DNA of 64,000 nucleotides from Patescibacteria group bacterium (GCA_041659045.1 JBAZZB010000003.1:28212-92211), one strand, 5' to 3'. Shown: positions 18,654-47,450, numbered from the stretch's first letter. A program made the numbers and translations. The notes: generated by a model not told the origin, from the letters alone.

Positions 18654-18670
18654 TTTGGCAGTCAAAAAAG

Positions 18671-19961: not shown

Positions 19962-20223
19962 ATTTGCCGGTCGCCCAGACTTTCAGCGTCTCGTAGTCAA
20001 CCGCGCCACAGAGTTTCGCGCCGGTTTCTTCGTTAACGAAGAACGGCACGCCGCCGCACATGTTCTCCGCATCCTTCTGTCCGCGCAGCTTGTTATTCGC
20101 TTCGTCGTGCCAAGTCTCAAGTTTTTGAACCTCGACGCCGAGTTCCTTTTCCAGCTGTTCGACAAGCGGCGCCATGCGGACGCAGTGTGGGCATTCTTTA
20201 CCGTAGAATTCGAGGAGGGCCAT
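19960..20223 (-). CDS. thioredoxin-family protein
   Basis: 87 aa with a CPHC active-site motif (EFYGKECPHCVRMAP). Confidence 0.8.
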   Translation of the reverse strand: MALLEFYGKECPHCVRMAPLVEQLEKELGVEVQKLETWHDEANNKLRGQKDAENMCGGVPFFVNEETGAKLCGAVDYETLKVWATGK

Positions 20224-20324
20224 GCGGATGCGTAATGAATCTTATCCACACGGTATCCCAGACACGACTGGACGGCAACCGCGCGCACCGATACGGTAGG
20301 GATACCACCAGAAGGAGGCTCGCC

Positions 20325-20792: not shown

Positions 20793-20834
20793 TCCCACGC
20801 CGCCAAGGCTCTGTGGGACGCGCGTCGGGGCTTT

Positions 20835-27803: not shown

Positions 27804-28163
27804 TCACTTGAAGACGTGCGGCCAAAACACCAAAACGCCCGCGAGGAGCGCGCCAACCGAACTGACGAGCACAGCACCCGCCATCATGTCCTTAATTTGC
27901 TCGGCGTACTCATGCATGCGCGGCTTGAACAGATCAACGAGCCGCTCGACGGCGCCGTTGAGTAATTCTAGCACGAGCGTCATCGCAGCGACAACGACAA
28001 GGAGCGCCGTTTCCGCGCGCGAGAGTTTGAAAATGAAGATCAGCACGGTCAGCACGACGGCCGCGAAGAGCTGAAGACGAAAACTCTGTTCTTCGCGAGC
28101 GAGCGTCATGATGCCCTTCACCGCGAAGCGCAGACTGCGCAGAAAACGCCCGGTATCAACCAT
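27804..28163 (-). CDS. dgkA: diacylglycerol / undecaprenol kinase (DgkA family)
   Basis: 119 aa, three TM, N-terminal ...FLRSLRFAVKGIMTLAREEQSFRLQ... matches the DgkA amphipathic start. Confidence 0.8.
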   Translation of the reverse strand: MVDTGRFLRSLRFAVKGIMTLAREEQSFRLQLFAAVVLTVLIFIFKLSRAETALLVVVAAMTLVLELLNGAVERLVDLFKPRMHEYAEQIKDMMAGAVLVSSVGALLAGVLVFWPHVFK

Positions 28164-28578
28164 ATTTTTGCGATTTCAGAATACGCTTTTGGAGCGGAAA
28201 CATGACGTTTTCGTCTTTGAGCGTTTCGTGGTCGTAACCCAAGAGGTGCAGCACGCCGTGGACAACAAGCATCGCGAGCTCGTCACGCAAGGGTTTCTTG
28301 GCTTCCTTCGCTTGGCGCTCGGCTTGCGCGACTGAAATGACAACGTCGCCGAGCAGCCCATGCTCACCGTCTGCGAACGAAAGGACGTCCGTCGTTTTTT
28401 TCTTGTTGCGATGCACCGTGTTGAGCTTTGTCATCTCGCGGTCGGAAACGAAAACGACGCCGACTTCGGCGGAAGTTTTTACCTTCGCGCCGCGCAGCGC
28501 GGCTTCGACCGTTTTTTTAATCCAAGCGTCGCTAACCGGCGCTTTGACGCGCCGAGCGACGGGAACGGTAACGATCAT
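28156..28578 (-). CDS. ybeY: rRNA maturation endoribonuclease YbeY
   Basis: ...VVHGVLHLLGYDHE... metal-binding H-x3-H-x5-H motif. Confidence 0.85.
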   Translation of the reverse strand: MIVTVPVARRVKAPVSDAWIKKTVEAALRGAKVKTSAEVGVVFVSDREMTKLNTVHRNKKKTTDVLSFADGEHGLLGDVVISVAQAERQAKEAKKPLRDELAMLVVHGVLHLLGYDHETLKDENVMFPLQKRILKSQKYG

Positions 28579-29564
28579 GGCTTCTTGCTGAAGCTATTGG
28601 TGAACATACGGAAGGTTGTCTTCAGCGCGTTCGGCCAAGGCTCCGTCGGCCCGCCTGCTTCACCTTCGCCGTAGGACTGGACGTATGCGAGACGATAGAT
28701 CTTGCCTTCAAGGTTGATATACGCGATAACGCCGTCTGACGCACGGACACCTTCAAGTCCGGACTTCGTGGAAAATTGCTCAACCTGCGTCGGGGAAACG
28801 CTTGGATTCCTCGTCAGATACCAGTCTAGGACGGATTGCGCGTCGGGATTTTCCTCTTTGCGCACTTCAAGATATTCGAAACTTCCGATCGCGAAAACAT
28901 AGGCATTCCAGAATTCTTGGAAACTACCGCCGCCCGGTGTCAGCACCCTGAATGCATCGTTGGCGTCCGCAAACGGAACGACAAGATTCGCTTCTTCAAG
29001 TTTTGTCGGCTTGAAACCAATTGGATTGTACAGGTTTGTGACTTCGAGGCCGTCTGAGTAGCCGTCGCCGTCCGTGTCGCTGTTCAGAGGACCTGTCTTG
29101 TACATTCCCTCTTCAAAATTCGTCAGTCCATCATTATCCGGATCCAGCGCGTCATCATTCGGCGGCGTCGCTGGCGTGGTTGTGGCGGGTTCCGGCTGAG
29201 GTTGCGGTTCTGGTTGTGGCTGGGGTTCGGGTTGAGGCTGCGGCGTCGGGAGGGTGACTGAAGGCGCAACAGGCTGCGCGGGCGGATCTGGACGAAGGAA
29301 CCACCAAATTGCAAAGCCCATACCGGCCAAAAGCACGACGGCAATAATCGGGATGAGAATCCATTTCTTGCTGCCAGATTCTTTTTTCGGTTTTGGAGGT
29401 TCGTTCGACGCAGGACTTGGCACGATCGCCATCGATGTCGTCGGGACAGGCATGTCTTTCGGCAGCTGCGCCTTTGCCGCCACGCCATAAAACTGTTCGG
29501 GGATCGTGTAGATCACCGGATCTTTCGGGGCGGCGGCGCTTTGCGGTGCTGGCTGCTCGGGCAT
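28575..29564 (-). CDS. membrane-anchored protein with PQPEPQ linker and thrombospondin-type-3-like Ca-binding repeats
   Basis: Single TM (WILIPIIAVVLLAGMGFAIWWF), (PQPE)n linker, DPDNDGLTNFEE and DTDGDGYSDGLE D-x-D-x-DG repeats, and a C-terminal domain of about 150 aa. Track M1 is TTG; first ATG at 29564. ATGA overlap with the ybeY start. Confidence 0.6.
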   Translation of the reverse strand: MPEQPAPQSAAAPKDPVIYTIPEQFYGVAAKAQLPKDMPVPTTSMAIVPSPASNEPPKPKKESGSKKWILIPIIAVVLLAGMGFAIWWFLRPDPPAQPVAPSVTLPTPQPQPEPQPQPEPQPQPEPATTTPATPPNDDALDPDNDGLTNFEEGMYKTGPLNSDTDGDGYSDGLEVTNLYNPIGFKPTKLEEANLVVPFADANDAFRVLTPGGGSFQEFWNAYVFAIGSFEYLEVRKEENPDAQSVLDWYLTRNPSVSPTQVEQFSTKSGLEGVRASDGVIAYINLEGKIYRLAYVQSYGEGEAGGPTEPWPNALKTTFRMFTNSFSKKP

Positions 29565-29579
29565 GGCTTTCAAACGTGG

Positions 29580-30176
29580 TTACGGAGCGGGCGGGATCTG
29601 AAGGAGTTTTCCCGCGCCTTTCGGATTGTAGCCGTTTCTGACTTCGTCGCCGTCTTTGAACGTATCGGCGTCCGTATCAACATTGTTCGGATCCGTCATG
29701 TAGACTTCGACTTCTTCTCGGTCGGAGAGCCCGTCGTTGTCTGTGTCGACCATGCCGGCATTCGTGCCGATTTGACTCTCACGCATATCACTCAGACCAT
29801 CGCCATCGCTATCGATTTCCGGCTGAGGCGGTGTTGGCTGCAGCTCGGGCTGCGGCTGTGGTTGAGGTTCAGGTTGTGGCTGGGGCGTGGGTTGCGGTTC
29901 GGGCGTAGGAAGTTGCACTGCGGGTTCCACAGGAACTTTACTGCCACGAAGCGAGAAGTAGGCTGCTGCGCCGCCGCCGATCAAGACGACGACAAGCACG
30001 AGAATCAGAATCCCCTTCTTGCCGAAAGCGGCTTGCTGCATCACGACACCTTGGCTCGCCGCGACCGGAGCTGCAGCTCCAGGCATCTGCGGAGGAACGT
30101 TCGTCGGTTTTTCGGAAGGAATCTCGGCGAAGATATCAGCCGGTTCGGTTTTGTCGTCGAAGAGGAAGAAGATCAT
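29580..30176 (-). CDS. membrane-anchored protein with PQPEPQ linker and TSP3-like repeats (paralog)
   Basis: TM (ILILVLVVVLIGGGAAAYF), (PQPx)n linker, DSDGDGLSD / DTDNDGLSD / DTDADTFKDGDE repeats. Confidence 0.6.
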   Translation of the reverse strand: MIFFLFDDKTEPADIFAEIPSEKPTNVPPQMPGAAAPVAASQGVVMQQAAFGKKGILILVLVVVLIGGGAAAYFSLRGSKVPVEPAVQLPTPEPQPTPQPQPEPQPQPQPELQPTPPQPEIDSDGDGLSDMRESQIGTNAGMVDTDNDGLSDREEVEVYMTDPNNVDTDADTFKDGDEVRNGYNPKGAGKLLQIPPAP

Positions 30177-30182
30177 ACCTTT

Positions 30183-30659
30183 TTATTCTACACAAAATAC
30201 CGGACGCTGTCCTGCGGCACTCGCTTCTTGCTGACGCGTCGCGACCCACGTTTTATCCTGCGTCTTGCCGTCCGTCATCGCTTTGAGCGGATCCGTGCAA
30301 AAAGAACGCACTTCGTCGAGGTCGCTGAGCCCGTCACTATCCGTATCCTTGCGATTCGGATCCGTGCGAAGCATCGCCTCTTCCCCATCGATCAAGCCGT
30401 CGTTATCGCTGTCTTTTTGTGCCGCTTCGGACAAGATCGGCGGAGAATCTCTTTCAAGAGGAACAATGCCATCGGGCTTCGACGTCGCCGGGGAGCCTGG
30501 AACCGGCGTCGGTTTCGCCCCAGTTTCTGTAACAGGAGCAGGAACCTCGACCCCCGGAACCGCAAGGCGTGCCGCGCGAGCGCGGAGGATGATCACGACC
30601 GTTGCGGTTCCTGCGAGGAAAACGGCGACAAGGCTAATGATGATGACAAGTCGCTTCAT
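30183..30659 (-). CDS. membrane-anchored protein with TSP3-like repeats (paralog)
   Basis: N-terminal TM (LVIIISLVAVFLAGTATVVIIL), DSDNDGLIDGEE and DTDSDGLSDLDE repeats. Starts 1 nt after the giant gene's stop. Confidence 0.6.
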   Translation of the reverse strand: MKRLVIIISLVAVFLAGTATVVIILRARAARLAVPGVEVPAPVTETGAKPTPVPGSPATSKPDGIVPLERDSPPILSEAAQKDSDNDGLIDGEEAMLRTDPNRKDTDSDGLSDLDEVRSFCTDPLKAMTDGKTQDKTWVATRQQEASAAGQRPVFCVE

Positions 30660-30660: not shown

Positions 30661-33600
30661 TTAATCGTTCGCGTTCGGGCCGTCGGCTCTGTTTACGTAC
30701 TTGTTCTTCAGTGTGAAACGTCCTTCGGTCGAGGAGGCCGTCTTGTCGATACGACCGATGTACCACATGCAAGGGTTTCCAGAGATGTCCGAGACGCTCG
30801 TGAGTGTGCGAGTCGTGCCGGTTGTGATACCAGAGACGCTCGCAGCTGATCCTGCTTCGATCGTGAAGATGGAGTTTCCTTTGATCGTCGAGCTGGCTCC
30901 CTTCCACCAACCGGTGTTGCGATCGAAGAGCGGTGCCAGGCCGTAGTTTCCATCAACGAAGCAGCTGCCGCCGTTGGCAAAGACATGGTAGGTACCCTGC
31001 GGCAATGACTGGGTCGAGAGCACCATGATTTCAGGGTCTGTTGCGTGCGTGCCGCCCGTTACGTCCCAGAAGAGCTGGATGTGATCGGTCGAGAAGTTGC
31101 CGTTGCCGACATAGCGCGTATCCGGTGAGCCGTCTTTCCAGCCGAAGTAACGCGTTTGTCCCGCGAGCGGACCTGAGCTGTAGACCGCTTTCACGTACAA
31201 GTCGACTTCGTTTGCTGCCGTGTGCGGCGTAGGCCACGAGATCTTGAAGCGGAAGTCGCCTGGGAGAAGTGTGCCGTTGTCGCAACCGCCGGTATAGAGA
31301 CCACAACCTCTTGAGCACAGCACCTGGCCGGCCGTACCGGCACCCTGTGAGGCGCAAGACGGGGCCGCGCCGCCCGCGAATCTGTTTGTGTCGCAGACTT
31401 CACCGTAGGTCGATTGAATCGTATTGTCGCCGCAATAGCCGCCATTCGGATCGTAGACGCAATCGTTACGGCAGACGTACGTCGTGCCTTGGCCGCGCGC
31501 TTCCGGATCACCCTGACCATCGCACTGCTCACCGAACAATCCTTGCTTCACGCCATCACCACAGAACGCCGCGCTCTTCGCATTCGTGCCGAAGCAGGCG
31601 TTTGAACAGTAGTTACAAGAACCATCGAGACGATACGCGACGCACGGACCATTTGCTCCGCATTCGGCATCGCTCGTACAAAGGCGACCGTTGACCTTAC
31701 ATTTTCTGGCCGTCGCGGCCGCTTGCGTGTTGGTGTACGGCTCCGGCTGACACTGCGTGTTATACGCAATGCACTGACCTTCGCCACCCTGACAATACTG
31801 ACCTGCGGCGCAATCTCCAGCAGCGCGGCAAGGCGCACCTTCCGGCGCAGCCGTACCTGTGCCCGTATACGGAGCGTAGGTGCCCGGGTCGAGTTCCAAC
31901 CCCGTACCATCAAAACCGGTATCAGCGCGGTCTGGGGGCGTTGTCGCAGTGGTGACAACGAGGTTCTGCGTGCGCGCCGACATGTTTCCATTGCCATCGA
32001 ACGCGTTGATCGTGATCGTGTGGATGCCCGCTGAAAGCTGACCGACGTTGACGGAGCAAGCCGCGGTCGCCAGGCGCGGATTAAACCGACAGGTTGTTCT
32101 CAATACTTGGACAGCGGCCGTCGTGAGATAGATATCGATGTTGTCGACGAGTGCGGCAGCGTCCGTCACATCCGAAACGGTGATGACAACCGAGTCGTTC
32201 GTTGTCGGACTTGTCGGAGCTGTCGTGATCGCGCCAATCGCGGGAGGAGTCGTGTCGCCAGGAACGCCGGCATTGCACTCACCGGGGCCGCACGTCGCGA
32301 AGGTGACGATCGAACCAGCAAAACGTCGCGCGGCCTCACCAAGAGGACCGAACATCGGAATCTCCACATCAGAACGCGCGAACGTTGATGAGGCGGGTGC
32401 GGCACTCGTGCTCGTGGACGCGCCCGGATAGTTGCGGCAGACGCCCGGCAAGCAGTCGTTGTTCGTCGTGCAACCCTTCACCCCGCTCGTATCAGACGGA
32501 TTCTGGTACGTGCGGCTGCACCAAGCTGTCACCGGACCTGGGTCGCACGTTTCCGGCGGCGCCGAAATTGTCCTATCGCCACAGAAGGCACCGGAAATTG
32601 TTTCAATGGAGCAATCGTTCTTGCAGTAGTTGCAGACAGAACCGTATTGCGGCGTGCAGAGAACTCCGTTGGCCGTGCCGTTGTCGCATTGTTCAACGCC
32701 GGTGCGTACGAAACCATCGTTACAGACGTTGAGCCTGCAGGTCGCGAGACACGTGCCGTTCGGAGAGTTTGCCGCGCCAGCATCGCACTGCTCGGCACCT
32801 TCAACAACACCGTTGCCACAAGCACCGGAAGGACGGCAGATTGACCAATCGTTAAAGGTGCACGCATCGCCAACAGGTTCCGTTGCCGCTTTGCAGCTCT
32901 TGGTACGCGTTTGTGGAAGACCTCCGGTTGTGGCGGCACAGAGCGAGCATGTTTCACCCGTGGCGCAATCAGAAGTTCTGGCGCAAGAAGCGAAGTCGCG
33001 CGGCGCGGTATTTGTATCAACCAACGAGAAGCCGGTTGGGACACAAACACCCTGGGTACTTGTCTGGTTTGCATCGCATTGTTCACCACCGTTGGTACTG
33101 CCATCACCGCAACGAGGACCGGGACCACGGCAGTCCCACGCACAGAAACCGTACTCGCCGTTTCTGGCACCGTCATCACACACTTCAGAACCATTTTTCA
33201 CGCCGTCACCGCAGAAATTCATGCGATCGGTACACACGGACGGATACGGCAAGCCGGAGCAGTCGGAGTTCGTACTGCACGCTTGTCCAAGGTCACAGCT
33301 TCCGTCCGCGCAGTTGCCGTCGAACGACGCGCGCTTGGCGATGTTGACGCAACGCTTCACGCAACCAAGACTACCGCTGCGGCAGCGACCGTACTGGCCG
33401 TTTTGAGCGCCATCATCGCACGATTCACCAGCAAACGATTCAAGGGATCCGTTGCCACACGCAGCAGCTCCAGGGCAAGCCGTCTGCACTTGCCATGTGC
33501 AAGCAGCGTTGCACGTTTCAAAATCTTGTCCGCCGGAGGCACAGGCGACGTTGCGCGTCATGCCGACTTCGCACTCTTCTGTACCTTCAAGCAAACCATT

Positions 33601-36600
33601 ACCACAGGCACCACCAGCAGCTGGGCCGACGAGAGGTACGCCGACTGGCATACACGCATCTTGCGGAGCGCACTGGCTGGAAGAGGTGCAGCTCGCACCC
33701 GTCGCGAGACATGCTCGCGGCGCGGTTGAAGGCTGACCGGAGCAGACTGGAGAAATCGTGATACGCGTCTGGCAGCTACCGGTCGTCGGACCGGAAGGAA
33801 CCCACGAGCAACCCAGCGCAGCATCGCAAGCGAACGCGCTCGGTTTCGATGAACAAGACGTTCCCAACCATTGATAGGTGACGTATTCGAAGTCGACGGC
33901 CATGCGGTAGTCGATGCCGCCGATCGCGCGATACTGGTAGACGTGCGAGTTTGCGGGGCAAGCGAAGATGCCGATCTTGTCGTTGTAGCACGTCTCTGCT
34001 TCGAACGTGGCGCGGCAGACATCCCCTGCTCCACCTGTGCAATCAGAATTCACAGAGCACGCAACACGGCTGATGGAACACTCGGAACCGAACGCTTCGC
34101 AACGATTAAAGGCATTGATCGGATCAACGACACTGCCGGCTCCGCCGAGCTGCTGGCTCCACGAAGGCCACTTGGATGTCGTGAAACCGCGCACGAAACT
34201 GCCGGATTCGAGTTTCGGATAGAAGCCGGTCTGTTCGCGCGACGTCTCGAGCGATTGTTCGATCACACGCATATCCTGCCAGCGGCGCATGTCGCGGCGG
34301 ATCTTGTCTTTGTCGGCGTCACAGCGCATGCCCGCAGGACCGTTCGGCAATGCGCGATCGCAATCAAGATTGCTGCTGCAGGTAATCGGTGCCGTGTTTT
34401 CTGCGGTCAGGTGGAGCAATTCTCCAGCGGCGTTCTTACATACGTTCGTCACGCGATCCGAAGGCACCAAATTCGTGTTGAAGTTGATGTTGCTGACGAG
34501 ACGATTAAAGATTTCCGCCGTGCGCGGGTCCGCGTGATCGTTAAACGCGAAGACGTAGATGTATGAGCGGAGATCCGGATCGCCGTATTTGTCGGCCGCG
34601 CCGATATAGACCGTGCGTTCGTCTTTGATCGCCATGTAGCCATCGACTGTCGCGCTCTGAGTCTTGCCCGAGAAGCGCTGGGCGACGTACCACTCTTGCG
34701 GCGTAAGACGGTCACTGTTTTCGTACACGCGCACACCAATGGCGTCAGAAACCTTCCACTCCGACTGGAAGCGGTACAAGAGGTCTTTGGAGCGGCAGGT
34801 GTCGCCGGCGTTGCAGTCCGCGTTCGTCGTGCAGGCGCGCGATTGCGAGAAATCGGTTGTCGCGGCGCAGAAGCGCAGCAAGCCAGAACCACCAACCGAC
34901 TGTCCTTGCGTCGGAGCGCTCATGAGCTCCGGCAGTGCGGCACCGGCGTTGTCGCGGCAATAATAGAATTCGAAGTGCGTCTGCGGATCGACATACGGTG
35001 CCCAAGCACCCGTCGAGACATCGCGGCGCGGCCACGGCATCTGGCAGAGCATGACCGTGATCGTCGATTTCCCGACTTTGTCCTGACCCGCCGTCGTAGG
35101 CGTGAGTGCCGTATCCGTTGTAATACGAGCGGTCGCAGCAACCTGTTCCTGACCGTTCAAGCCCTTTTTCGCTTGAACGATTGTGGATGGAGCACCCGCA
35201 ACAGCCGTCATGTCGAGAATCGGACCAACCGTGGCGCTCTCCGGGATATTCGCCCAGCTCCACGACCAGTCATAGACGCCAGGAACGGGAGAAATTGCTT
35301 CAAGACGACCACCACGGTCGGTCATCGCCGTCGCGGTGATCGTGAGAGGAATCGCAGAGTCCTGGATGAGTTCCGTCGCCGGCGACGTTTGCACGACGTC
35401 AAAGCGGCAGACATCCGAACCCGTCGTGAAGTCCTGCACGGTGTTGGCGCCTTCGGGATAGCCGACACCCTTGATCGTTTTCACACCCGTCGCTCCGCCA
35501 CGTGCCGTCACGCGATAGAGTCGGTTGGGGCTCAACATCTGTTTCGGAGCGAACGTAGAAATCGTGCGCACCGATGCGTCGGGCGCCGTGACATTCACGT
35601 GCGTAAAGGCGCCTTCGATCGGCGCACAGATATGCGAAGCGGATGCTTCCATGCCGACCAAGGAGCGGAAGAAGCGGCCGACAGAGGAAGCGGCGCGCGC
35701 GAACCACGAGCGCGGGCCTTTTTCGTTGAAGGCGTGGCTCGGGCACGATTCGACGACGAGACCACCCTGCAACGAGCCGGTATTCATTTCTTCGCCGAAC
35801 TCGACGCTGATCTGGACGTTCCGGCATTCGTTGCCGCCCTTCGGATTAATATCCGGCGCGTCCGGACGCGGGAAACAGCACGCTCCGGCGCCGCACGAAA
35901 GATTCGGTCCAAAGGCGGAGCAGTCACTGTCAGCGCGGCAAGAGCACTCAACATTCACGCTCCCCTGTCCGGAGACCGTGCCGATCGCGGCTGTTACCGA
36001 AGCGCTGCAGTTATTGCGGGCGTCGCACTGATTACGCGCTTCGATGACTTGCATCGGATCGATGTTCGCATCGAGCGCCAACGCTTCGCATTCTTCACCG
36101 CCACCGTTTTGAGCATTCGTCAGAGGGTCCGCAGGCTGCATGCTAATAACAGTGTCGCCGCAATAGGCGCGAAGTTCCGGATCGGAACCCGTCCTCGTGC
36201 AACGCGTCGAACAACCGGAAGAGGCGTCGCCGTTCTTGGCGGCCGCGTCGCAGTTTTCACCTTTCGCGGGTTCGATCACGCCGTTGCCACAGCAGTTGGT
36301 GCCGGCAGTGCACGTGACGGGGTTTCCGCGCAGCAAGCAGCTTTGTCCGCAGGCGAAATTCGGACGCGTCGGATTACGTTCATCCGTCGCGCCAAGCGCC
36401 GCAGGCGGGCGTCCAGCGATGAGAAGCTGCGTGGCAAGACCTCCAGCTCCAAGTATGTAGTCGCACTGTTCGCCTGGCGTTTCCAATAAGCCGTTGCCGC
36501 AAACATAGACGTTCTGGCGAGAACCTTCGAGTACGCAGCGCGAGCTGCAGCCGTCGCCATCTTGCGTATTGCCATCGTCGCACGCTTCGCCAACGCCTGT

Positions 36601-39600
36601 GGAGCCGTTGCCGCAAGCCGAGAGTCCAGGGGTGGAACCGACGAGCAAACAGGACGTCGTGCAACCAGCCGCTGCGGTACCATTCGCGGCACCCGCATCG
36701 CACTCTTCTCCGCGATCTGCCTGTACCGTGCTGTCACCGCAACCGTTCGTGAGCGTATTGCCTGTCGACAAGCAGTTCGCATTGCAACCATTCAGCCCGG
36801 GCGTATCACACGCTTCGCCACGTTCAAGCGTGCCGTTGCCGCATGAAGGCGTTCCTGCTGGCTGACTTCCTGTCATGAGACAGTTGGTCGAACAGCCAGC
36901 CGGAAGAATCGGATTGGTGTTGAGAAGCGTACCCGGCGGCACGTCAGGCAAAAGACGAATCGAAACAGGTGAAGCCGGGTTCTGTGCCTTGCTCCATGCC
37001 CAGTTATAGGAAGACGCGTTGAGCATCTGGCCGTTTGCGGCACAGGTGTCAGGAGAGCTCAGTGGCATGGCTGTGATCGGCGATACTTCACCGATGTAGC
37101 GCAGCGTCGTCTGTTGCGGAGCCAGGGTCACGCTTTGCGGACCGCACGGATCGCCGCTTAGGCGCGTGCGGAAAATCCAGCTGAAAGCATTCCCAGAATA
37201 GTTCAGACCCGTGAGAGGCGCTTGGCTCGTACTCTGTGCAGTGCCGAGAATAACGGCGCGGTACCAGGTGTTCGGCGCGAGCGCGACGTTGCCGAACGAC
37301 AAGAGTCTCGCCGGCGCGTTGTAGTTCGGCGCGAGCGGTACTTCACCCTCGAACGTCAGACACGACTCGTTGCGGCAGCGATACAAGCGCACATTCGAAA
37401 GAATGCTGCTGGGACCGCTTTCAGCCATCGGCGTGTTGAAGTAGGCGAAACCGACCGTGTTGACGCAGGCTTCGTTGCAGTCGTGCGGGCCATACTCAAC
37501 AACGCGCGGGTTGGCGTAATCAACCGTCAGCAAACCGGAGTCTGCAAAACCATCGACCGTCGAACGGATTTGGATCGGCGGACCTGGGTCGGTTTCGGAA
37601 ACCGGCGTCGCGACCGCTTCGCACTGGCGCGAACCGCCAAGCGAAACAATCGTCGCTTTACCCGGATCGGTCGAAGCCCAGTTCACGGTGCGACCAGCGC
37701 AGGAAAGAATGATGCAGCGGCTCGATAGCGGGAACGCTTGATAATCCTTGGTTTCGTCGGCAGCGGCAATCAGCGCGCTCGTCGGTTGCACGTCGACACC
37801 GGAAATCACGCAAGGACCAGCCCCTGTTTTGAAGGACGTAACATAGGCGCCACCTGCGCGACCATCGAAGTTGCCGTCGAGCACCTGTGCTCCCCTCTCG
37901 GCTGTACCGAGGCTGCGTACCTGGTCTCGGATCGTCAGCCGATACCACGTGTTCGGCGCGAGTCCGTTTACCGGCAACACGAGTTGCGAGCGGCCGTCGG
38001 TGTCGTAATCGAGAAGACTCGGCGCTCCAGCACCCGCGACAGCAGAACACGTTGTTGAGATCGTTGCTCCCGTGCCACAAGCTTCAAAGACGACGTTCGC
38101 GGCGTTGAACGTGGCAGGATCCATCGGCAAGCTGAAACGTGCCGTCATGGTTCCCATGTCGGTACAGACGTCGGTCATGCCCTTGAAGGGGTTCGGGCTC
38201 GGCATAGCCGAAGGAGCCGTGGCTTGGCACGTCGCGTTCTCCATGACGATCGGGAACACCGGAATCGGTCCGGTCGAGAACTGCCATGCAAAACCACCAG
38301 CAGCGGCCGCAGCACCGCACGACGCGCGGCAAGCACCATCATCGCAGCAGCTGCGTCCGCTACCGCACGAAGCATCGCCACCACTCTCGCGGCAATCACG
38401 AATCTGGAAATTTACACCATTGGATTCAGCCGGTGTCGCACCAACAAACGTGCGCACACGCACCGGACCCGTCGTCGCGCCATCGGGAACCGACGCAGCA
38501 ATCGAAGACGACTGCCACTGGCCGATTGAAGAGGCGTTGATGTTGTCGTTGAAACGAACAGCGTCAGGATGCGCGGTGATGAAGGCCGGAAGATCGGCGC
38601 CGGAAATCGTGCCGAAACCGTCGCCGTAGAGCGTCACCGCGGTGCCGATCGGGCCGTTGTCGGGATCGACGCGGCAGAGGCCAGGCGTGAGCGGATCGGT
38701 ATTGATCGTAAACGGAATTGCGTTTGATACGCGACCGTCGGAACGCACAACCGTGACGTTGTACGCACCAAGCGCGACCGCCGTGTCAGCCGGCGTCGTG
38801 AAACGCGCAGGAACTTTGACGGTGACGCTGGCGTTCGTCCAATAGCCCGCCGCGCATTGCGCCGGGAAACTGATATCACCGACCGCTTCGCCCGCAGCAT
38901 TCCTGAAACGCACCGTGCCGCCGGAACCAAAGTTCGAACCGAAGAGCGACACGTACGTGCCAACCGATCCGTCTTCTGGCGTGATGAATTCGACGCGCGG
39001 TTCGGTTCCCGCTTCAGGAGGTTCGACGCGAAGACATGCTGTGTTCGAGGGCTGTCCCGCAACCGTTACGCGCAACAAGAAATTCGAACCATCAAAATCT
39101 GTTTCAACGTTCGGAATTGTCGGCGAGAAGGACGTTTCACTCCACGGAGACACCTGGGAAGCTTCCGCAGCCGTCGTCCAATCTTGAATTTGAGAACAAT
39201 CGGCACCGGCGCGCGTAATTTGCACGCGTGAATCACCCTGTGCCGCGCCAAAGGCGAGACCGGTCACAACGACCGTATTCCCCGTTTTCACCGAAGCCGG
39301 AGCGACCGAACAAATACCCGGACGTGCGACGTCGTTCACCTGGAAATCGGTGATGATCGGTCCGTAGGCATCGTTCGTCGCGTCTTGGCGTCCTCCGGAA
39401 GCAGCGACGCGAATCGGTCCCGTAACCGCGCCTTGCGGCACGAGTACGACAATACGATTGTCACTCCAAGCGTTTGCGCATTGTGCGACGGTCGCCACTT
39501 GATCATCCCCTGCCGCCGCCGTACCCAAGAACGTCACGGTACCCGCCGTCGATCCGAAACGATCACCCGTGATCGTCACGAGGTTACCGGGACGACCGTC

Positions 39601-40923
39601 GCGAAGTTGCACGTCGGTGATCTGCGGATTCTCGACGCACTGGCCGTTCTGGCAGAGACCGGAAGAGCATTGGCTGTTGTCGGTGCAGCTGCCGCCGGTG
39701 CAGGCACCGCATGAACCACCGCAATCGACCGCGACTTCGTCTCCATCGCGTACATTGTTGAAACAGAATTGCGGGCGCACCGTCACACGCACCGCGCTCG
39801 AACGCGCTTCGTCGCCGTCGATGTTGACCGCGCGAGCCGAGAGAGAAACCGTTCTGACCGGTGCTAGGCCTGTGGTGTCCCACACCGACTGGCTCGAATA
39901 CGTTGAAGGCGCGATGTTTTGAACGTTGCCGTCCGCCGTGAAGAAAGCGCCATCCGCCGAATATTCAACCGTCGCGATACCGCTTTCGTCGGTAGCGATC
40001 GCTTGGATCGGCACGAGGTCGCCGGCCGGAACGGACTGGCCGTCGGTCGGGCTGGAAATCGTAATCGTCGGCGGTTCCGTCATGACGGTTTCGCCGGTTC
40101 TGAAACTCCGCGAGCACATCGCGCCGAGGCCACAGCTCACCGTGCGCGGATCAGACGTCGAAGCATTGCGGAGTCCCGCGCGCACCGTGATCTGGTAGTC
40201 GGTGTTTTGTTCGAGACAGCGGCGATCAGCGTTCGGTGCCGGGCACGGCGTTACCGGACGCAAACGAATCGTAAAATTTTCAACAACGGGTTCGTAGTCG
40301 ACGCTCGTGCGCGTTGTGCCTTCAACCTTCTCAAGAAGAATGTTGGCGCGAATGTTGGTCGCGTCATCGGTCGGCGCGGCGCTGAAGGTCACGGCCGCCG
40401 TGACGTCGTATTTCGGAAGCGAGCCGCTCGGCTGAATCGCCGTCGGTCGGAAAGCACCACCGGAACCGCCACCAAAACCGCCTCCCCCGCCTCCGCCGCC
40501 GCCAGGACCGCCACCGCCAGGGCCACCCGTCGTCGCACTGATCAGCGAACTCAGAACGTAGGAAACGATCGCGAAGGCCGACATGATAATGACGAGTCCG
40601 ATCACCGCGCCCGAGAGCGTTTTCTTCGCGCGCGTGATTTTGGTCTCATCCCCCGCCGCCGTCATCCAAGTGAAACCCGCGTACAAAACAAGAAGCAGTG
40701 CGATCGTGCCGAGAAGGCCGAGCCCTACGCGAATGATGCGAGCGATCGTGATGCGAATGTCGGTCGTGCCGGTTCCAAGCTCCGCGCCAATTTGGCCCGG
40801 AAGAATCTCGTTCGAGGTCACGCCCTGCGCGTTTACCACGCCATGAGACGCAAACCACAAGCACGGCGCGAGAAGCGCCAGGCTGATGATCCATGATCGA
40901 TGACGTCGGAAGAACGCGCGCAT
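30661..40923 (-). CDS. giant secreted/surface protein (3420 aa): pilin-like two-helix N-terminal module, Gly-rich linker, IPT/TIG-like and Ig-like domains, at least 15 Cys-rich CGNG...GE.CD repeats
   Basis: Single uninterrupted ORF in the track. N-terminus has a signal peptide, two hydrophobic helices and a poly-Gly run. IPT/TIG-like units (e.g. PQITDVQLRDGRPGNLVTITGDRFG). Repeats such as CGNGSTGVGEACDDGNTQDGDGCSSRCVLE resemble the Myxococcus-type cysteine-rich repeat. Confidence 0.8.
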   Translation of the reverse strand: MRAFFRRHRSWIISLALLAPCLWFASHGVVNAQGVTSNEILPGQIGAELGTGTTDIRITIARIIRVGLGLLGTIALLLVLYAGFTWMTAAGDETKITRAKKTLSGAVIGLVIIMSAFAIVSYVLSSLISATTGGPGGGGPGGGGGGGGGFGGGSGGAFRPTAIQPSGSLPKYDVTAAVTFSAAPTDDATNIRANILLEKVEGTTRTSVDYEPVVENFTIRLRPVTPCPAPNADRRCLEQNTDYQITVRAGLRNASTSDPRTVSCGLGAMCSRSFRTGETVMTEPPTITISSPTDGQSVPAGDLVPIQAIATDESGIATVEYSADGAFFTADGNVQNIAPSTYSSQSVWDTTGLAPVRTVSLSARAVNIDGDEARSSAVRVTVRPQFCFNNVRDGDEVAVDCGGSCGACTGGSCTDNSQCSSGLCQNGQCVENPQITDVQLRDGRPGNLVTITGDRFGSTAGTVTFLGTAAAGDDQVATVAQCANAWSDNRIVVLVPQGAVTGPIRVAASGGRQDATNDAYGPIITDFQVNDVARPGICSVAPASVKTGNTVVVTGLAFGAAQGDSRVQITRAGADCSQIQDWTTAAEASQVSPWSETSFSPTIPNVETDFDGSNFLLRVTVAGQPSNTACLRVEPPEAGTEPRVEFITPEDGSVGTYVSLFGSNFGSGGTVRFRNAAGEAVGDISFPAQCAAGYWTNASVTVKVPARFTTPADTAVALGAYNVTVVRSDGRVSNAIPFTINTDPLTPGLCRVDPDNGPIGTAVTLYGDGFGTISGADLPAFITAHPDAVRFNDNINASSIGQWQSSSIAASVPDGATTGPVRVRTFVGATPAESNGVNFQIRDCRESGGDASCGSGRSCCDDGACRASCGAAAAAGGFAWQFSTGPIPVFPIVMENATCQATAPSAMPSPNPFKGMTDVCTDMGTMTARFSLPMDPATFNAANVVFEACGTGATISTTCSAVAGAGAPSLLDYDTDGRSQLVLPVNGLAPNTWYRLTIRDQVRSLGTAERGAQVLDGNFDGRAGGAYVTSFKTGAGPCVISGVDVQPTSALIAAADETKDYQAFPLSSRCIILSCAGRTVNWASTDPGKATIVSLGGSRQCEAVATPVSETDPGPPIQIRSTVDGFADSGLLTVDYANPRVVEYGPHDCNEACVNTVGFAYFNTPMAESGPSSILSNVRLYRCRNESCLTFEGEVPLAPNYNAPARLLSFGNVALAPNTWYRAVILGTAQSTSQAPLTGLNYSGNAFSWIFRTRLSGDPCGPQSVTLAPQQTTLRYIGEVSPITAMPLSSPDTCAANGQMLNASSYNWAWSKAQNPASPVSIRLLPDVPPGTLLNTNPILPAGCSTNCLMTGSQPAGTPSCGNGTLERGEACDTPGLNGCNANCLSTGNTLTNGCGDSTVQADRGEECDAGAANGTAAAGCTTSCLLVGSTPGLSACGNGSTGVGEACDDGNTQDGDGCSSRCVLEGSRQNVYVCGNGLLETPGEQCDYILGAGGLATQLLIAGRPPAALGATDERNPTRPNFACGQSCLLRGNPVTCTAGTNCCGNGVIEPAKGENCDAAAKNGDASSGCSTRCTRTGSDPELRAYCGDTVISMQPADPLTNAQNGGGEECEALALDANIDPMQVIEARNQCDARNNCSASVTAAIGTVSGQGSVNVECSCRADSDCSAFGPNLSCGAGACCFPRPDAPDINPKGGNECRNVQISVEFGEEMNTGSLQGGLVVESCPSHAFNEKGPRSWFARAASSVGRFFRSLVGMEASASHICAPIEGAFTHVNVTAPDASVRTISTFAPKQMLSPNRLYRVTARGGATGVKTIKGVGYPEGANTVQDFTTGSDVCRFDVVQTSPATELIQDSAIPLTITATAMTDRGGRLEAISPVPGVYDWSWSWANIPESATVGPILDMTAVAGAPSTIVQAKKGLNGQEQVAATARITTDTALTPTTAGQDKVGKSTITVMLCQMPWPRRDVSTGAWAPYVDPQTHFEFYYCRDNAGAALPELMSAPTQGQSVGGSGLLRFCAATTDFSQSRACTTNADCNAGDTCRSKDLLYRFQSEWKVSDAIGVRVYENSDRLTPQEWYVAQRFSGKTQSATVDGYMAIKDERTVYIGAADKYGDPDLRSYIYVFAFNDHADPRTAEIFNRLVSNINFNTNLVPSDRVTNVCKNAAGELLHLTAENTAPITCSSNLDCDRALPNGPAGMRCDADKDKIRRDMRRWQDMRVIEQSLETSREQTGFYPKLESGSFVRGFTTSKWPSWSQQLGGAGSVVDPINAFNRCEAFGSECSISRVACSVNSDCTGGAGDVCRATFEAETCYNDKIGIFACPANSHVYQYRAIGGIDYRMAVDFEYVTYQWLGTSCSSKPSAFACDAALGCSWVPSGPTTGSCQTRITISPVCSGQPSTAPRACLATGASCTSSSQCAPQDACMPVGVPLVGPAAGGACGNGLLEGTEECEVGMTRNVACASGGQDFETCNAACTWQVQTACPGAAACGNGSLESFAGESCDDGAQNGQYGRCRSGSLGCVKRCVNIAKRASFDGNCADGSCDLGQACSTNSDCSGLPYPSVCTDRMNFCGDGVKNGSEVCDDGARNGEYGFCAWDCRGPGPRCGDGSTNGGEQCDANQTSTQGVCVPTGFSLVDTNTAPRDFASCARTSDCATGETCSLCAATTGGLPQTRTKSCKAATEPVGDACTFNDWSICRPSGACGNGVVEGAEQCDAGAANSPNGTCLATCRLNVCNDGFVRTGVEQCDNGTANGVLCTPQYGSVCNYCKNDCSIETISGAFCGDRTISAPPETCDPGPVTAWCSRTYQNPSDTSGVKGCTTNNDCLPGVCRNYPGASTSTSAAPASSTFARSDVEIPMFGPLGEAARRFAGSIVTFATCGPGECNAGVPGDTTPPAIGAITTAPTSPTTNDSVVITVSDVTDAAALVDNIDIYLTTAAVQVLRTTCRFNPRLATAACSVNVGQLSAGIHTITINAFDGNGNMSARTQNLVVTTATTPPDRADTGFDGTGLELDPGTYAPYTGTGTAAPEGAPCRAAGDCAAGQYCQGGEGQCIAYNTQCQPEPYTNTQAAATARKCKVNGRLCTSDAECGANGPCVAYRLDGSCNYCSNACFGTNAKSAAFCGDGVKQGLFGEQCDGQGDPEARGQGTTYVCRNDCVYDPNGGYCGDNTIQSTYGEVCDTNRFAGGAAPSCASQGAGTAGQVLCSRGCGLYTGGCDNGTLLPGDFRFKISWPTPHTAANEVDLYVKAVYSSGPLAGQTRYFGWKDGSPDTRYVGNGNFSTDHIQLFWDVTGGTHATDPEIMVLSTQSLPQGTYHVFANGGSCFVDGNYGLAPLFDRNTGWWKGASSTIKGNSIFTIEAGSAASVSGITTGTTRTLTSVSDISGNPCMWYIGRIDKTASSTEGRFTLKNKYVNRADGPNAND

Positions 40924-40926
40924 AGG

Positions 40927-42708
40927 TTATGGGAGGAAGCCGCAAGCGACCTGTGAAGGCACGCCATTGCAGCAATACGGTTCAGTTCCGGTACAGACCG
41001 TCTGGCCGCCGCCTGGGTAGAAGCAGTTCTGGCGCAAATCGCGCAGGCCGGAGGTGAGGTTGATGGCGTACGGCTGGTTGATCGACAGAAGATCGTGATC
41101 AATGATGCCTTTCGTTTGATCTGGATCACCACCAACGACGGAAGAAATCGCTTCGGTCTCGATCGAGTAGTTCGTCGGGGCACCATTCGCTCCCGGCACG
41201 AGCCTGGCATTATCCGTCGTGAAGCTCGTCGAGCTCATGAGTTTCGAGAACGTCACCGCCATCGCGAGATCGCGCGCGATGTTGCCCTGCAGCACCGCCG
41301 GTTCCTGAGAGACAACTTTCGGCGGCACGAGATCGATCTCGTTGGACGTGCGGAAGTCAGACGTGTAGTCGTCATCGGGAGAACCTTGCGCCGTACCGTT
41401 GCCGTTACCATCGAGCGCGTTACCCGCCATGTCGGTGATGCCGTTGGGAGGATAGATGCCGAGCGGCGGAGTCGATGTCAGCGCGTCGGTGCGCACGCGT
41501 ACGTTGATTTGTTGGTTGCCTGGGAGGCAGAACACTTCTTCGCCGCAAGAGTTCGTGCCGCAAGCTTCGTTGGTGTGGAATTCGACGGTGCGATAGGCGT
41601 TACCGATCTGCTGCACGCCCGGAACGACGTTGCCGCCCGTGCGCGTGATCGAGAGGCCGGAGGTCACACTGACCGGATCAACCGCTTCATCGAACGTCAC
41701 CTGGACCAGCGAGTTGCGCGGCACGCCACTCGCGCCGTCGTTCGGGATGACGTAGGAAACTTTCGGCGGCGTAAGGTCGAGCACTGTTGAAACCTGGAAC
41801 TCCCAGAGATACCCGGAGTTGAAAGTGCCCGTGAAAGCCGGAGCGCCTCCTTCGCGGCGCACGCCGTCCGTACCACCGCGGAGACCGATCGTATAGAAGA
41901 CGTTTTCTGATGGGCTGCCGAAGCAGTTCGTCGGACAATTGCGCTGCACAAACGTCACGCTGCGACCATCAGCGGAAACAGCGACGTCGATATCGGCAGA
42001 CGTCAGGCTCTGTGAGAATTTTTGCGCGAATTGGTTCGACGAAGTAACGTCAGCGGATTTTGAAATCGCGACCGTTGCGTTCGCGCCACCAACGACGATC
42101 GAAGCAGGGTCGATGCGTTGCTTGAATGTGACGACGACACGCGTGTTGCGCGCGACACCTGTCGCGTTGCGATTCGGATAATGGCTCTCAATAATACCGT
42201 TACCGAGCGCGCCAGCCGGGCAGGTTGCCGAAAGGCCGATGCACGCACGATCGTCCGGCGCGCTGGAGCCGCTGCCCGGGCCTCCCCCGCCGGGGCCGCC
42301 GCCTTCAGCGAGCAAACGACTGATGACAAACGAGGTGATCGCAAAAGCAGACAACATGATGACCAACCCGATGACGGCGGACGTCAGGATTTTCTTGGCG
42401 CGATCGACCTTCTCGGGTTCGCCGGCGGCTGTCATCCAAATGAAGCCGGCGTACAAAATAAGGAGAAGCGCGATCGTGCCGAGGAAACCGAAGAATGCGC
42501 GAATAATACGGGCAATCGTCACGCGAATGTCGCCCGTGCCTGTTCCAATAACGTTTCCAAGTTCCGTCGGCAACACTTCATTGGCCGTCACCTGCGCTTG
42601 CGCCAGATGTGCAAAAGCGAAGGACGCAAAAACCACCAACACGAAACTGGCGACCGTGAAGGTGGCTTTAACGAGTACTTGGGAGAGTGACTTCCTTCCT
42701 GAGAGCAT
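40927..42708 (-). CDS. secreted protein (593 aa) with the same pilin-like N-terminal module followed by Ig-like domains
   Basis: About 70 % identity to the giant protein over the first 130 aa or so (...DIRVTIARIIR...GTIALLL.LYAGF.WMTAAG...RAKK.L..AVIGLVI..SAFAI.S.V.S.L..GGPGGGGPG). Ends 3 nt before the giant gene's start. Confidence 0.75.
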   Translation of the reverse strand: MLSGRKSLSQVLVKATFTVASFVLVVFASFAFAHLAQAQVTANEVLPTELGNVIGTGTGDIRVTIARIIRAFFGFLGTIALLLILYAGFIWMTAAGEPEKVDRAKKILTSAVIGLVIMLSAFAITSFVISRLLAEGGGPGGGGPGSGSSAPDDRACIGLSATCPAGALGNGIIESHYPNRNATGVARNTRVVVTFKQRIDPASIVVGGANATVAISKSADVTSSNQFAQKFSQSLTSADIDVAVSADGRSVTFVQRNCPTNCFGSPSENVFYTIGLRGGTDGVRREGGAPAFTGTFNSGYLWEFQVSTVLDLTPPKVSYVIPNDGASGVPRNSLVQVTFDEAVDPVSVTSGLSITRTGGNVVPGVQQIGNAYRTVEFHTNEACGTNSCGEEVFCLPGNQQINVRVRTDALTSTPPLGIYPPNGITDMAGNALDGNGNGTAQGSPDDDYTSDFRTSNEIDLVPPKVVSQEPAVLQGNIARDLAMAVTFSKLMSSTSFTTDNARLVPGANGAPTNYSIETEAISSVVGGDPDQTKGIIDHDLLSINQPYAINLTSGLRDLRQNCFYPGGGQTVCTGTEPYCCNGVPSQVACGFLP

Positions 42709-42736: not shown

Positions 42737-43192
42737 CTACGCTTTGTTTTGCAAGAACTCTTTGACCGCTTTGCCGACCGAGTTGCCGTCGGCTTTTCCT
42801 TTCAGTTCCTTCATGACCTCACCCATGAGGCGTCCGTAGGCAGCTTCTCCGGAGAGTCCGAGTTCAGCGGCTTTTTTGGCCACAGCGGCTTGGACTTCTT
42901 CTTCGGAGCACTGCGCGGGAAGGAACGTCGTGAGAAGCGCGAGTTCGACTTTCGTCGACTCGGCGAGATCCTGACGATCCGCTTTCTCGAAGTCCGAGAG
43001 CGCATCGCGCAGTTTTTTGACCTCGCGTCCGATGACCTCGAGAGCTTCTTCGTCGTTCAACTCTTTGGTTTGCTTGTCGATTTCGACGTTTTTCATCGCC
43101 GCACGGAGCATGCGGAAGGTCGAGACCGCCGAAGCGTCCTTGGCCTTCATTGCTTCCATGAACCGTTTTTCGATGTCGCTTCGGAGGGACAT
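42737..43192 (-). CDS. GatB/YqeY domain protein
   Basis: 151 aa; ...EEALEVIGREVKKLRDALSDFEKA...AEL...GKADGNSVGKAVKEFL matches the YqeY family. Confidence 0.85.
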   Translation of the reverse strand: MSLRSDIEKRFMEAMKAKDASAVSTFRMLRAAMKNVEIDKQTKELNDEEALEVIGREVKKLRDALSDFEKADRQDLAESTKVELALLTTFLPAQCSEEEVQAAVAKKAAELGLSGEAAYGRLMGEVMKELKGKADGNSVGKAVKEFLQNKA

Positions 43193-46657: not shown

Positions 46658-47272
46658 TTAGGGAGCGCGGAAGAGCGTGACGCGATCGATAGGCCAACCT
46701 CGGATCCAGACGCGGCCGACAATGTTGGTAAGGGGAAGGGGTCCGAAGGTGCGGGAGTCGAGACTGGCAGTGCGATTGTCTCCGAGAACGAAGTACTCGC
46801 CTTCTCCGAGCTTGATGGTGCGATCCCCGCGCGTCGGCACATCCGATGGTAAGTAACTACTTTCGTCGAGGACTTCTCCTTCAGGCGTTGCTTCATTGAA
46901 GAGCACAACATGATCGCCGGTGATCTTCACGGTTTCACCCGGCAAGCCGACAACACGCTTGATGAAGTACTGGCGCGGATCGAGCGGATAGCGGAAGACA
47001 ACGACTTCTCCGCGTTCGGGTGTACGGAATCGATAGCTCAGTTCATCGATGATCAAATACTCGTGATCATCGAAGGTCGGTTCCATCGACGCGCCTTTGA
47101 CGTAGAACGGCTGGATCAAGAAATACCGAATCGGCAAAATGATCGCCAAGGAAATGACGACGATCTCGACCAGTTCAATTGCGAAGCGTCCAACGGCCGC
47201 AAAAAAAGACGGCGTGTCGTCGACTTCTTCGGCGTTGACCGGCGGCTCAGGATTCGGGATGGGATTGTTCAT
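46658..47272 (-). CDS. lepB: signal peptidase I
   Basis: ...VKGASMEPTF... Ser box, ...FVLGDNRTASLDSRTFGP... box E. Start at ATG 47272 (MNNPIPNPEPP). The track's 410-aa ORF runs through tRNA-Val and is rejected. Confidence 0.85.
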   Translation of the reverse strand: MNNPIPNPEPPVNAEEVDDTPSFFAAVGRFAIELVEIVVISLAIILPIRYFLIQPFYVKGASMEPTFDDHEYLIIDELSYRFRTPERGEVVVFRYPLDPRQYFIKRVVGLPGETVKITGDHVVLFNEATPEGEVLDESSYLPSDVPTRGDRTIKLGEGEYFVLGDNRTASLDSRTFGPLPLTNIVGRVWIRGWPIDRVTLFRAP

Positions 47273-47273
47273 A

Positions 47274-47350
47274 TGGTGGACGTTGGTGGATTCGAACCAC
47301 CGACCTCTGTCGTGTGAAGACAGCGCTCTAACCAACTGAGCCAAACGTCC
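47274..47350 (-). tRNA. tRNA-Val (anticodon CAC), CCA encoded
   Basis: Hand-folded: acceptor GGACGTT/AACGTCC, D stem GCTC/GAGC, anticodon stem CTGTC/GACAG with loop TTCACAC, T stem GGTGG/CCACC with TTCGAAT, discriminator A and CCA. Confidence 0.85.
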
Positions 47351-47371
47351 GTGGCAGGAGGGTCGAACGGC

Positions 47372-47400
47372 TGGACAAGCAGCCCCTTTTCCTCTACTAT
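47372..47400 (+). promoter_or_regulatory. candidate promoter for the LCP gene; its -10 overlaps face-to-face with a reverse-strand TATAGT -10 for tRNA-Val
   Basis: TGGACA-N17-TACTAT on the plus strand; the reverse strand reads TATAGT at about 47396-47401. Confidence 0.3.
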
Positions 47401-47450
47401 ACACGGGTAAAGAGCAGTTTAGCAGGCTTTTCGCCCTTGAGCAAGTCCTC

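Follow-up and report, generated by a model that had tools for sequence, protein, structure and literature searches.

Pilins of the VirB2/TrbC family, such as Agrobacterium VirB2 and RP4 TrbC, have a signal peptide with an A|Q junction, two long hydrophobic helices separated by a short basic loop, and conserved G and W positions. They are small proteins of ~70-80 amino acids (aa) in their mature form, are often trimmed at the C-terminus and cyclised, and are encoded in type IV secretion system (T4SS) operons of diderm hosts. In Patescibacteria, VirB2-like pilins have been recognised only recently and the structure that they build is still undefined (PMC10633639, PMC12857230); a 2025 review describes a pilus in these monoderms as intriguing but unproven (PMC12857230). 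The pilins have been reported from 1,948 assemblies, in arrays of 2-11 genes with a mean identity of 25% and a maximum of 54%, often near virB4 (PMC12102498). In Southlakia epibionticum, the one species open to experiment, where the PF18895 proteins among the entries listed are all small, pilins of this Pfam family are essential for growth on the host (PMC10633639). Pilin fusions are mentioned in neither PMC10633639 nor PMC12102498, and the latter survey reports no adhesins and no PrgB homologues either. Here we describe two adjacent genes in a 64,000-nucleotide chromosomal stretch of a Patescibacteria group bacterium (GCA_041659045.1 JBAZZB010000003.1:28212-92211; hereafter the window), gene A (593 aa; 40927-42708, minus strand) and gene B (3420 aa; 30661-40923, minus strand), in which a module of this pilin family stands at the head of large, predicted surface proteins.

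The two proteins share with classical VirB2/TrbC pilins the signal peptide with its A|Q junction, the two helices with their basic loop and the conserved G and W positions, but differ from them in having 430 or 3260 extra extracellular residues, a housekeeping neighbourhood and a single-membrane host. With the patescibacterial VirB2 arrays (PMC10633639, PMC12102498) they have in common the phylum, the Pfam family and the tandem arrangement of pilin-domain genes; they differ in that their modules are 57-70% identical, carry large payloads and form a fixed two-gene unit across classes, with no T4SS genes nearby, either within the window or in the scanned flanks of related loci. The Mbov_0395 family of Mycoplasma integrative and conjugative elements (NF045849) comprises small two-helix pilin-like proteins of monoderm conjugation that lack a large payload, and genes A and B are related to it without being members. 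PrgB of pCF10 is likewise a large surface adhesin, with a possible role in cell-cell contact for the T4SS of a monoderm, but PrgB-type adhesins are anchored to the wall by an LPXTG motif and sortase and are unrelated in sequence, whereas the anchor of the present pair is a pilin domain. The same design principle, in an unrelated filament, is found in modular type IV pilins such as Streptococcus sanguinis PilB and PilC, minor filament subunits in which a polymerising pilin bears a bulky C-terminal functional or adhesive module; neither the class III signal peptide of that system, which a prepilin peptidase cuts, nor its single N-terminal helix is present here. Finally, short peptides added at the C-terminus of engineered F-pilin can be exposed on the pilus surface, but these are short artificial additions in a diderm, whereas genes A and B encode natural, very large domain arrays.

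The pilin family itself is established; the novelty lies in finding it at the head of large surface proteins that are encoded by a fixed core operon, with no T4SS genes seen close by. The architecture is visible in databases, as some orthologues are already auto-annotated as 'type IV secretion system pilin/Big-like domain-containing protein', and a protein identical to that of gene A (P0121), from a Patescibacteria metagenome-assembled genome, is held by NCBI/JGI as 'Ig-like domain-containing protein'. In the full-text literature, of which our coverage was incomplete, we came across no account of VirB2 pilins fused naturally to large domains, of this gene pair or of the co-variation of its modules.

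Two adjacent genes with a common N-terminal module

An earlier note on this stretch, made from the sequence alone, had described two open reading frames (ORFs) of 593 and 3420 aa, 3 nucleotides (nt) apart, each opening with a signal peptide, a DIR.TIARIIR motif, two hydrophobic helices split by a basic loop, and a poly-Gly linker. Lengths, coordinates and the 3-nt spacing were confirmed exactly, and every one of these elements is found in both proteins, in the order basic/hydrophobic signal peptide, polar N-extension, DIR(V/I)TIARIIR, two hydrophobic helices and poly-Gly run. In gene A, the signal peptide (aa 1-38; 42595-42708) is recognised by its basic n-region, a hydrophobic segment at residues 8-38 and an AxA motif, with a predicted signal peptidase I site at AQA|Q. 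It is followed by the pilin module (aa 39-135; 42304-42594), which comprises the N-extension, DIRVTIARIIR, helix 1, the basic loop and helix 2, and by a flexible Gly-rich linker (aa 136-165; 42214-42303) that starts GGGPGGGGPGSGSS and has a predicted local distance difference test score (pLDDT) of 31-41 in an AlphaFold2 model. The corresponding parts of gene B are a signal peptide with a site predicted from sequence at VNA|Q (aa 1-32; 40828-40923), the module (aa 33-132; 40528-40827) and a poly-Gly linker, GGPGGGGPGGGGGGGGGFGGGSGGA (aa 133-157; 40453-40527). Kyte-Doolittle hydrophobic segments fall at residues 63-97 and 104-135 in gene A and 58-91 and 101-131 in gene B, and the loop between the helices, with the pattern TAAG..K..RAKK, reads TAAGEPEKVDRAKK in the former and TAAGDETKITRAKK in the latter. 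The A|Q junction at the predicted cleavage site is kept both in the module alignment and in the alignment of VirB2 proteins.

Pairwise alignment places the N-terminal similarity far past chance. BLASTP aligns residues 16-134 of gene A with residues 10-129 of gene B (68 of 120 positions identical, 57%; 75% positives; E=4e-29), and in a comparison of both whole proteins no segment outside the N-terminal module aligns better than E~0.5, which bears out the claim that the identity ends abruptly at the linker. The earlier estimate of about 70% identity over some 130 residues holds for the 74-column two-helix core (70%) and was slightly too high for the whole N-terminus (59% over 138 aa). Identity is 66% over the mature module (96 aa), 69% over module plus linker and 28% between the signal peptides. 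At the DNA level the modules are 67% identical, and four-fold-degenerate third positions are equal in 10 of 31 codons; because these sites match so rarely, the likeness is old and maintained at the protein level, and does not reflect a recent duplication or an assembly repeat. A six-frame phmmer search of the window with both modules as queries returned these two copies and no third.

The topology of the module had been likened in the earlier note to that of VirB2/TrbC-type pilins, a comparison that was to fall if pilin-family profiles failed to match. Both proteins in fact score above the curated gathering score (26.6 bits) of the Pfam family PF18895, T4SS_pilin, gene A with 36.7 bits (aa 61-128) and gene B with 30.7 bits (aa 68-123). 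This family is also precomputed on 119 of the 120 module homologues listed and on nearly all listed orthologues of gene A. Profile-profile comparison by hhalign of the module (62 sequences) with VirB2/TrbC proteins from MPF_T conjugative plasmids (6 sequences) gave a probability of 86% (E=5.1e-6) over 56 columns, in register through helix 1, loop and helix 2; the same profile against Agrobacterium VirB2 alone gave 28% (E=6e-4). With the NCBIfam model NF045849 the module aligns across positions 9-78 of 80, at 37.1 and 28.6 bits, under the curated cut-off of 40. AlphaFold2 models the module of gene A as a hairpin with helices at 61-92 and 98-135 (pLDDT >90). In fold searches so simple a hairpin is indistinguishable from others, and membership of the VirB2-like superfamily accordingly rests on sequence profiles and not on structure. 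Both modules retain all invariant residues of the pilin family, together with the conserved polar motifs DIR.TIARIIR, WMTAAG and RAKK, and each is followed, in a size unlike that of a plain pilin, by 458 (A) or 3288 (B) further residues, linker included. These comparisons support the reading of the first ~130 residues of each protein as a complete conjugative-type pilin of the VirB2/TrbC family.

Two other modes of surface assembly were considered and rejected. A type IV pilin does not fit, as there is no match to N_methyl or any such pilin Pfam family, the hydrophobic signal core precedes the cleavage site and does not follow it, and a single 'GVTSNE' string in gene B, which might recall a prepilin motif, precedes a polar segment. 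Sortase anchoring is likewise not indicated: LP.TG is absent from both proteins, which end in ...VACGFLP and ...ADGPNAND.

Behind the linker, the payloads consist of Ig-like domains (Big_5, Big_7, TIG) and cysteine-rich repeats, consistent with the proposed fusion to large extracellular-type arrays. The payload of gene A (aa 166-593; 40930-42213) has three Big_5 matches, and an AlphaFold2 model of the protein built with 76 orthologues (pLDDT 82; predicted template modelling score, pTM, 0.70) contains the hairpin, is disordered through the linker (residues 134-164) and continues with three beta-sandwich domains predicted with confidence, pLDDT being mostly >90 across the payload, and a Cys-rich C-terminal tail. 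Foldseek relates the sandwiches to LdtMt2 Ig domains (E 3e-9) and to two S-layer proteins, SbsC and Sap. The giant payload of gene B (aa 158-3420; 30664-40452) was dissected with Pfam on the whole protein and on segments, with NCBIfam and with a scan of motifs and Cys density. It contains Big_7 (285-343), at least two TIG domains (433-512 and ~752-840), Big_5 (902-1005) and three blocks of cysteine-rich acidic CGNG..E.CD repeats (TIGR02232/DUF4215; 1361-1560, 2489-2720 and 3121-3160), along with long stretches that have no family match; the protein has 177 cysteines. Across 151 related fused proteins, Gly makes up on average 35% of the 30 aa past the module.

The module is not confined to this pair. 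When 1.84 billion representative proteins were scanned exhaustively with HMMER, 80,775 family members were recovered at E<=1e-3, and in 18 of the 63 top single-module matches an N-terminal module is followed by 520-4030 further residues. The closest stand-alone pilins are ~130 aa long, with their C-terminus exactly at the point where the linker of genes A and B starts, and sit in arrays of 5-7 pilin genes; one such array pilin, P0013, has 61-62% core identity to the modules and the same lineage-specific N-extension. The stand-alone proteins that stop at the linker position and the many public proteins with an N-terminal module and a payload of 650-4158 aa agree well with the earlier suggestion of a modular element. 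A word-based search for module homologues was left out of the estimate of fusion frequency, as it favours short proteins (only those of <=256 aa were listed, and the identical 593-aa protein was missed).

Other arrangements of the module were seen in the same material. Among the 150 best-scoring representatives, 84 of 147 newly returned proteins carry two or more modules, in tandem chains of 2 to at least 10, as in P0272 (1775 aa, modules spaced about 190 aa), P0294 (1147 aa), P0386 (1382 aa) and P0242 (820 aa); many further tandem-pilin proteins measure 230-560 aa, and P0019, P0085, P0101 and P0118 also belong here. Arrays of 5-7 pilin genes were located in two distant genomes, L007 (1967-8512; GC 0.62) and L009 (4757-10360; GC 0.42), both directly after genes for an NTP_transferase and an SBP_bac_1 solute-binding protein and with no virB4 within 10 kb. 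In one member of these arrays, of 441 aa, the pilin module is C-terminal.

A conserved gene pair with co-varying modules

To place the pair in related genomes we scanned one genome per species, which returned at least 583 related stretches; 80 loci were kept, from Uhrbacteria, Falkowbacteria, Komeilibacteria, Magasanikbacteria, Parcubacteria, Paceibacter and other Patescibacteria. At 75 of the 80, the very next gene after a pilin-Ig gene of ~600 aa encodes a pilin-headed giant of 1544 to >3500 aa; three of the other five loci are truncated by contig edges. Because 75 of 80 species-representative loci keep it, the pair is a conserved core operon and not an oddity. Gene A has at least 568 relatives, with identity down to 36%; the best 120 are nearly all 550-650 aa long, and 114 of them combine PF18895 with Big_5. 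The surroundings recur as well: the gene immediately upstream is yqeY in 55 of 74 loci, 67 loci contain hisS and 63 of 80 the signal peptidase gene lepB, an ORF with thrombospondin-type-3 (TSP3) motifs follows the giant in 19 of the 40 loci that have a complete giant, and the whole order down to ybeY/ftsA is repeated in L006. In five genomes a stand-alone pilin gene of 123-167 aa stands between the A- and B-type genes (L002, 11763-12266; L033, 11899-12288; L045, 7071-7442; L050, 11866-12237; L061, 8753-9250). Complete genomes that carry the pair include CP129476.1, the closest, with an orthologue at 87% identity, as well as OY970357.1, OZ246408.1 and the 1.02-Mb contig of ERZ25039512. About 1% of a ~1-Mb genome is devoted to the pair, which is retained at least in the ABY1-type groups (Uhrbacteria, Falkowbacteria, Komeilibacteria, Magasanikbacteria) and in Paceibacter; from its size and the breadth of its retention, it is probably central to the lifestyle of a large share of uncultured bacteria.

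Two details of these loci deserve a separate record. In the complete 1.02-Mb genome L002 the giant is represented by a pilin-headed ORF of 1584 aa (12273-17027) and a pilin-less ORF of at least 2033 aa (17014-21758), which overlap by 14 nt; either the gene is truly split or a frameshift separates the two. Records titled 'uncultured Gammaproteobacteria bacterium' (L015, L016, L021, L024, L026 and about 35 others) carry the operon with yqeY/hisS synteny, and these titles look like mislabelled taxonomy.

Conservation is unevenly distributed along the proteins. Among the 76 orthologues in the gene A family, the helices and loop are the best conserved part, with a median identity of 52-59% between distant orthologues and the window protein; the corresponding values are 27-47% in the Ig payload and 21% in the linker. 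The modules also co-vary within genomes. Over 75 genomes, A and B modules of the same genome are on average 58.7% identical, compared with 48.1% for A and B taken across genomes; between genomes, A modules are 49.5% and B modules 50.7% identical to their own kind, and the own partner is the best module match in 28 of 75 cases. The within-genome excess is significant by permutation (p<1e-4) and against a composition-matched control (49.6%; p=2e-10), which rules out amino-acid composition bias as its source; it is weaker against a nearest-genome control (56.3%; p=0.004).

Synonymous-site identity within genomes is modestly raised (0.40, against a baseline of 0.29 matched for G+C content at third codon positions, GC3). 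For the window pair, recent gene conversion is ruled out, its 10 of 31 four-fold matches being near the 0.29 baseline. In L075 and L085 the modules are 77-86% identical, with an identity at four-fold third positions of 0.67-0.70 at a GC3 around 0.25, a pattern that likely reflects recent gene conversion confined to the module; L015, L014 and L012 are listed beside them, at very high GC3. The homogenised tract always ends at the linker. Occasional gene conversion thus explains part of the likeness between the modules, and selection maintains the rest.

Proposed surface display and co-assembly, and competing explanations

We propose that the pilin module is a conserved assembly unit common to both proteins, and more than a greasy anchor. 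In this scheme Sec would export the N-terminus and signal peptidase I would cut at A|Q, after which the two helices would insert as a hairpin with the basic loop in the cytoplasm and both ends facing outward, as in the established topology of VirB2-type pilins. The outward C-terminus would then run through the flexible Gly-rich linker into a payload displayed on the surface of the single-membrane cell, gene A providing a short stalk of three Ig-like domains and gene B an Ig-like/cysteine-rich, adhesin-type array of ~3260 aa. Most probably the two proteins co-assemble with each other and with stand-alone VirB2-like pilins, in a membrane platform or a T4SS-type pilus, and the resulting filament or patch would carry adhesins. 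That another extracytoplasmic unit can follow helix 2 is indicated by the existence of natural tandem multi-pilin proteins, and structures of conjugative pili place the junction between the pilin termini on the outside (PMC13434634). What the data establish are the homology, the domain layout, the conservation, the synteny and the co-variation of the modules; cleavage, topology, surface display, co-assembly, incorporation into a pilus and the adhesive role are inferred, and the evidence supports co-assembly with other VirB2-like pilins, in a membrane platform or a pilus, short of showing it. We give the explanation as a whole, display and co-assembly together, a probability of roughly 0.6.

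Several observations weigh against it. A direct search with the second pilin family proposed in the earlier note, PF04956 (TrbC/VirB2), gave no match at E<=0.1 for either window protein, so that of the Pfam searches suggested there PF18895 succeeded for both proteins and PF04956 for neither; PF04956 is precomputed on several module homologues at 44-58% identity to the module. Searched by hmmsearch with two profiles of the module, the full set of PDB chains gave no meaningful match. Pfam searches of most ORFs of >=150 aa in the window, including every candidate, revealed no VirB4, VirD4, VirB6 or other T4SS gene, the flanks of related loci consist of housekeeping genes, and the T4SS loci published for these patescibacterial classes lie elsewhere, near dnaA or comF (PMC12102498). 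In Patescibacteria, a pilus built from VirB2-like pilins is still to be observed (PMC12857230). The payload of ~3260 aa is too bulky for every subunit of a ~8-nm helical filament, and its incorporation could be sparse or terminal only. The classical pilins TrbC, VirB2 and TrhA are trimmed at the C-terminus and cyclised (PMC13434634), which a permanent C-terminal fusion precludes. Finally, gene conversion accounts for part of the within-genome likeness in some lineages and needs no functional explanation.

Several of these points would be met if the pilin-derived hairpin served merely as a two-pass anchor, or as an insertase sorting tag, for surface-coat or adhesin proteins, with neither pilus nor T4SS involved. 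A plain anchor would suit an operon that lies among housekeeping and cell-division genes, with signal-anchor TSP3 proteins as partners and a payload like the Ig domains of S-layer and other envelope proteins; it would avoid the steric awkwardness of a giant payload in a helical filament, and it would agree with the fact that the patescibacterial pilus has never been observed (PMC12857230). Yet a mere anchor should drift, whereas no other part of the protein is as well conserved as the helices and loop, and every family-invariant residue is retained. The module is, moreover, ~61% identical to stand-alone array pilins, which we take to be as near as its paralogue, the modules of one genome vary together, and in some genomes stand-alone pilin genes are interposed between the fused ones. 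We consider an anchor alone possible but on this evidence rather unlikely.

A quite different fate would await the proteins if pilin and payload were split after export, either to release the payload, with helix 2 acting as an internal signal, or to remove the extension and free a pilin that might be cyclised. Classical pilins do lose C-terminal residues (27+4 in RP4 TrbC; TrhA is trimmed too; PMC13434634), helix 2 has a basic stretch before it and, after it, small residues (LLA|E, ISA|T) that might suit signal peptidase I, a gene for a signal peptidase recurs close to the pair, and the linker is disordered and accessible in the AlphaFold2 model. Helix 2, however, spans ~27-38 residues, a transmembrane length far beyond the core of a signal peptide, and the S26 peptidase encoded nearby is a short, generic enzyme laid out like a housekeeping LepB. 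It is hard to see why 1% of a ~1-Mb genome should be spent on a discarded extension, and a released adhesin would need no conserved pilin; we regard such a pro-protein as improbable. As for the view that nothing special has to be explained, hydrophobic helices can align spuriously and genes A and B are adjacent, so that generic signal-anchor resemblance or a very recent local duplication might come to mind. Such an origin is contradicted by the BLASTP significance, obtained with composition correction, by the conserved polar motifs, by curated HMM matches above threshold, by near-random synonymous sites and by the recurrence of the arrangement across 75 of 80 species, and we count it as refuted.

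The operon offers a concrete, testable link between this pilin family and surface attachment, and in genes A and B a pilin of the conjugative type bears large cargo naturally, something otherwise known only for type IV pilins and engineered F-pilin. The pair and three TSP3 genes form a vertically inherited core envelope operon, whose probable function is to attach the cell to a host or to some other surface. Were the module only an anchor, it would still represent a widespread, unnamed way to tether surface proteins in monoderm cells. More speculatively, patescibacterial VirB2-type pilins might be a general display scaffold, with the T4SS filament or platform a heteropolymer of stand-alone, tandem and modular pilins, the modular ones bearing giant adhesins on their outward C-termini, and with the modules matched within each genome for packing; the pair would then be the missing adhesin of the essential T4SS and a core determinant of host attachment. 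We offer this wider picture tentatively and hold it to be doubtful.

The neighbourhood of the pair in the window

The window is chromosomal and patescibacterial, and its genes include ftsZ, ftsA, ybeY, yqeY, hisS, lepB, SUF genes, topA and relA. Downstream of gene B, the same tightly packed minus-strand operon continues with three small signal-anchor proteins of 158, 198 and 332 aa (28575-30659; gaps of 1-6 nt) that match Pfam TSP3_bac. They share a layout of N-terminal membrane anchor, Pro-rich (P-E/Q-P-Q)n spacer and TSP3 Ca-binding D.D.DG repeats, and show weak, sub-threshold matches to the Myxococcus gliding/cohesion proteins CglD and MtsD. The last of these genes overlaps by 4 nt with ybeY (28156-28578, minus strand), beyond which lie ftsA and ftsZ, each identified by its Pfam family (YbeY, FtsA, FtsZ). 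On the other side, yqeY (42737-43192, minus strand; Pfam YqeY) is located 28 nt upstream of gene A. A scan of the operon for promoters and terminators gave no more sites than shuffled sequence, and an Rfam scan of the window returned two tRNAs only.

Further along the window, the lepB ORF (46658-47890, minus strand) is 410 aa long and has its S26 domain at aa 238-399 only, while orthologues measure about 205 aa; its 5' extension, from a TTG start, crosses a tRNA-Val gene (47274-47350, minus strand), and the true start is probably internal to the ORF. At 2925-6459 (minus strand), the gene for a FecR-domain protein (532 aa) is followed immediately by one for a CHASE2-sensor adenylate/guanylate cyclase (642 aa), which gives this otherwise reduced genome a signalling pair. 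Two ORFs of about 490 aa without family match (14848-16329, plus strand; 16814-18262, minus strand) adjoin infC (13546-14097) and rplT (14314-14673), the first of them with Cys-rich ends (CPDCNGD... and ...CNACAAH) that flank a long coiled coil. A TruD-type tRNA pseudouridine synthase of 477 aa is encoded at 51592-53025 (plus strand), with a Pfam match that spans aa 54-328 only.

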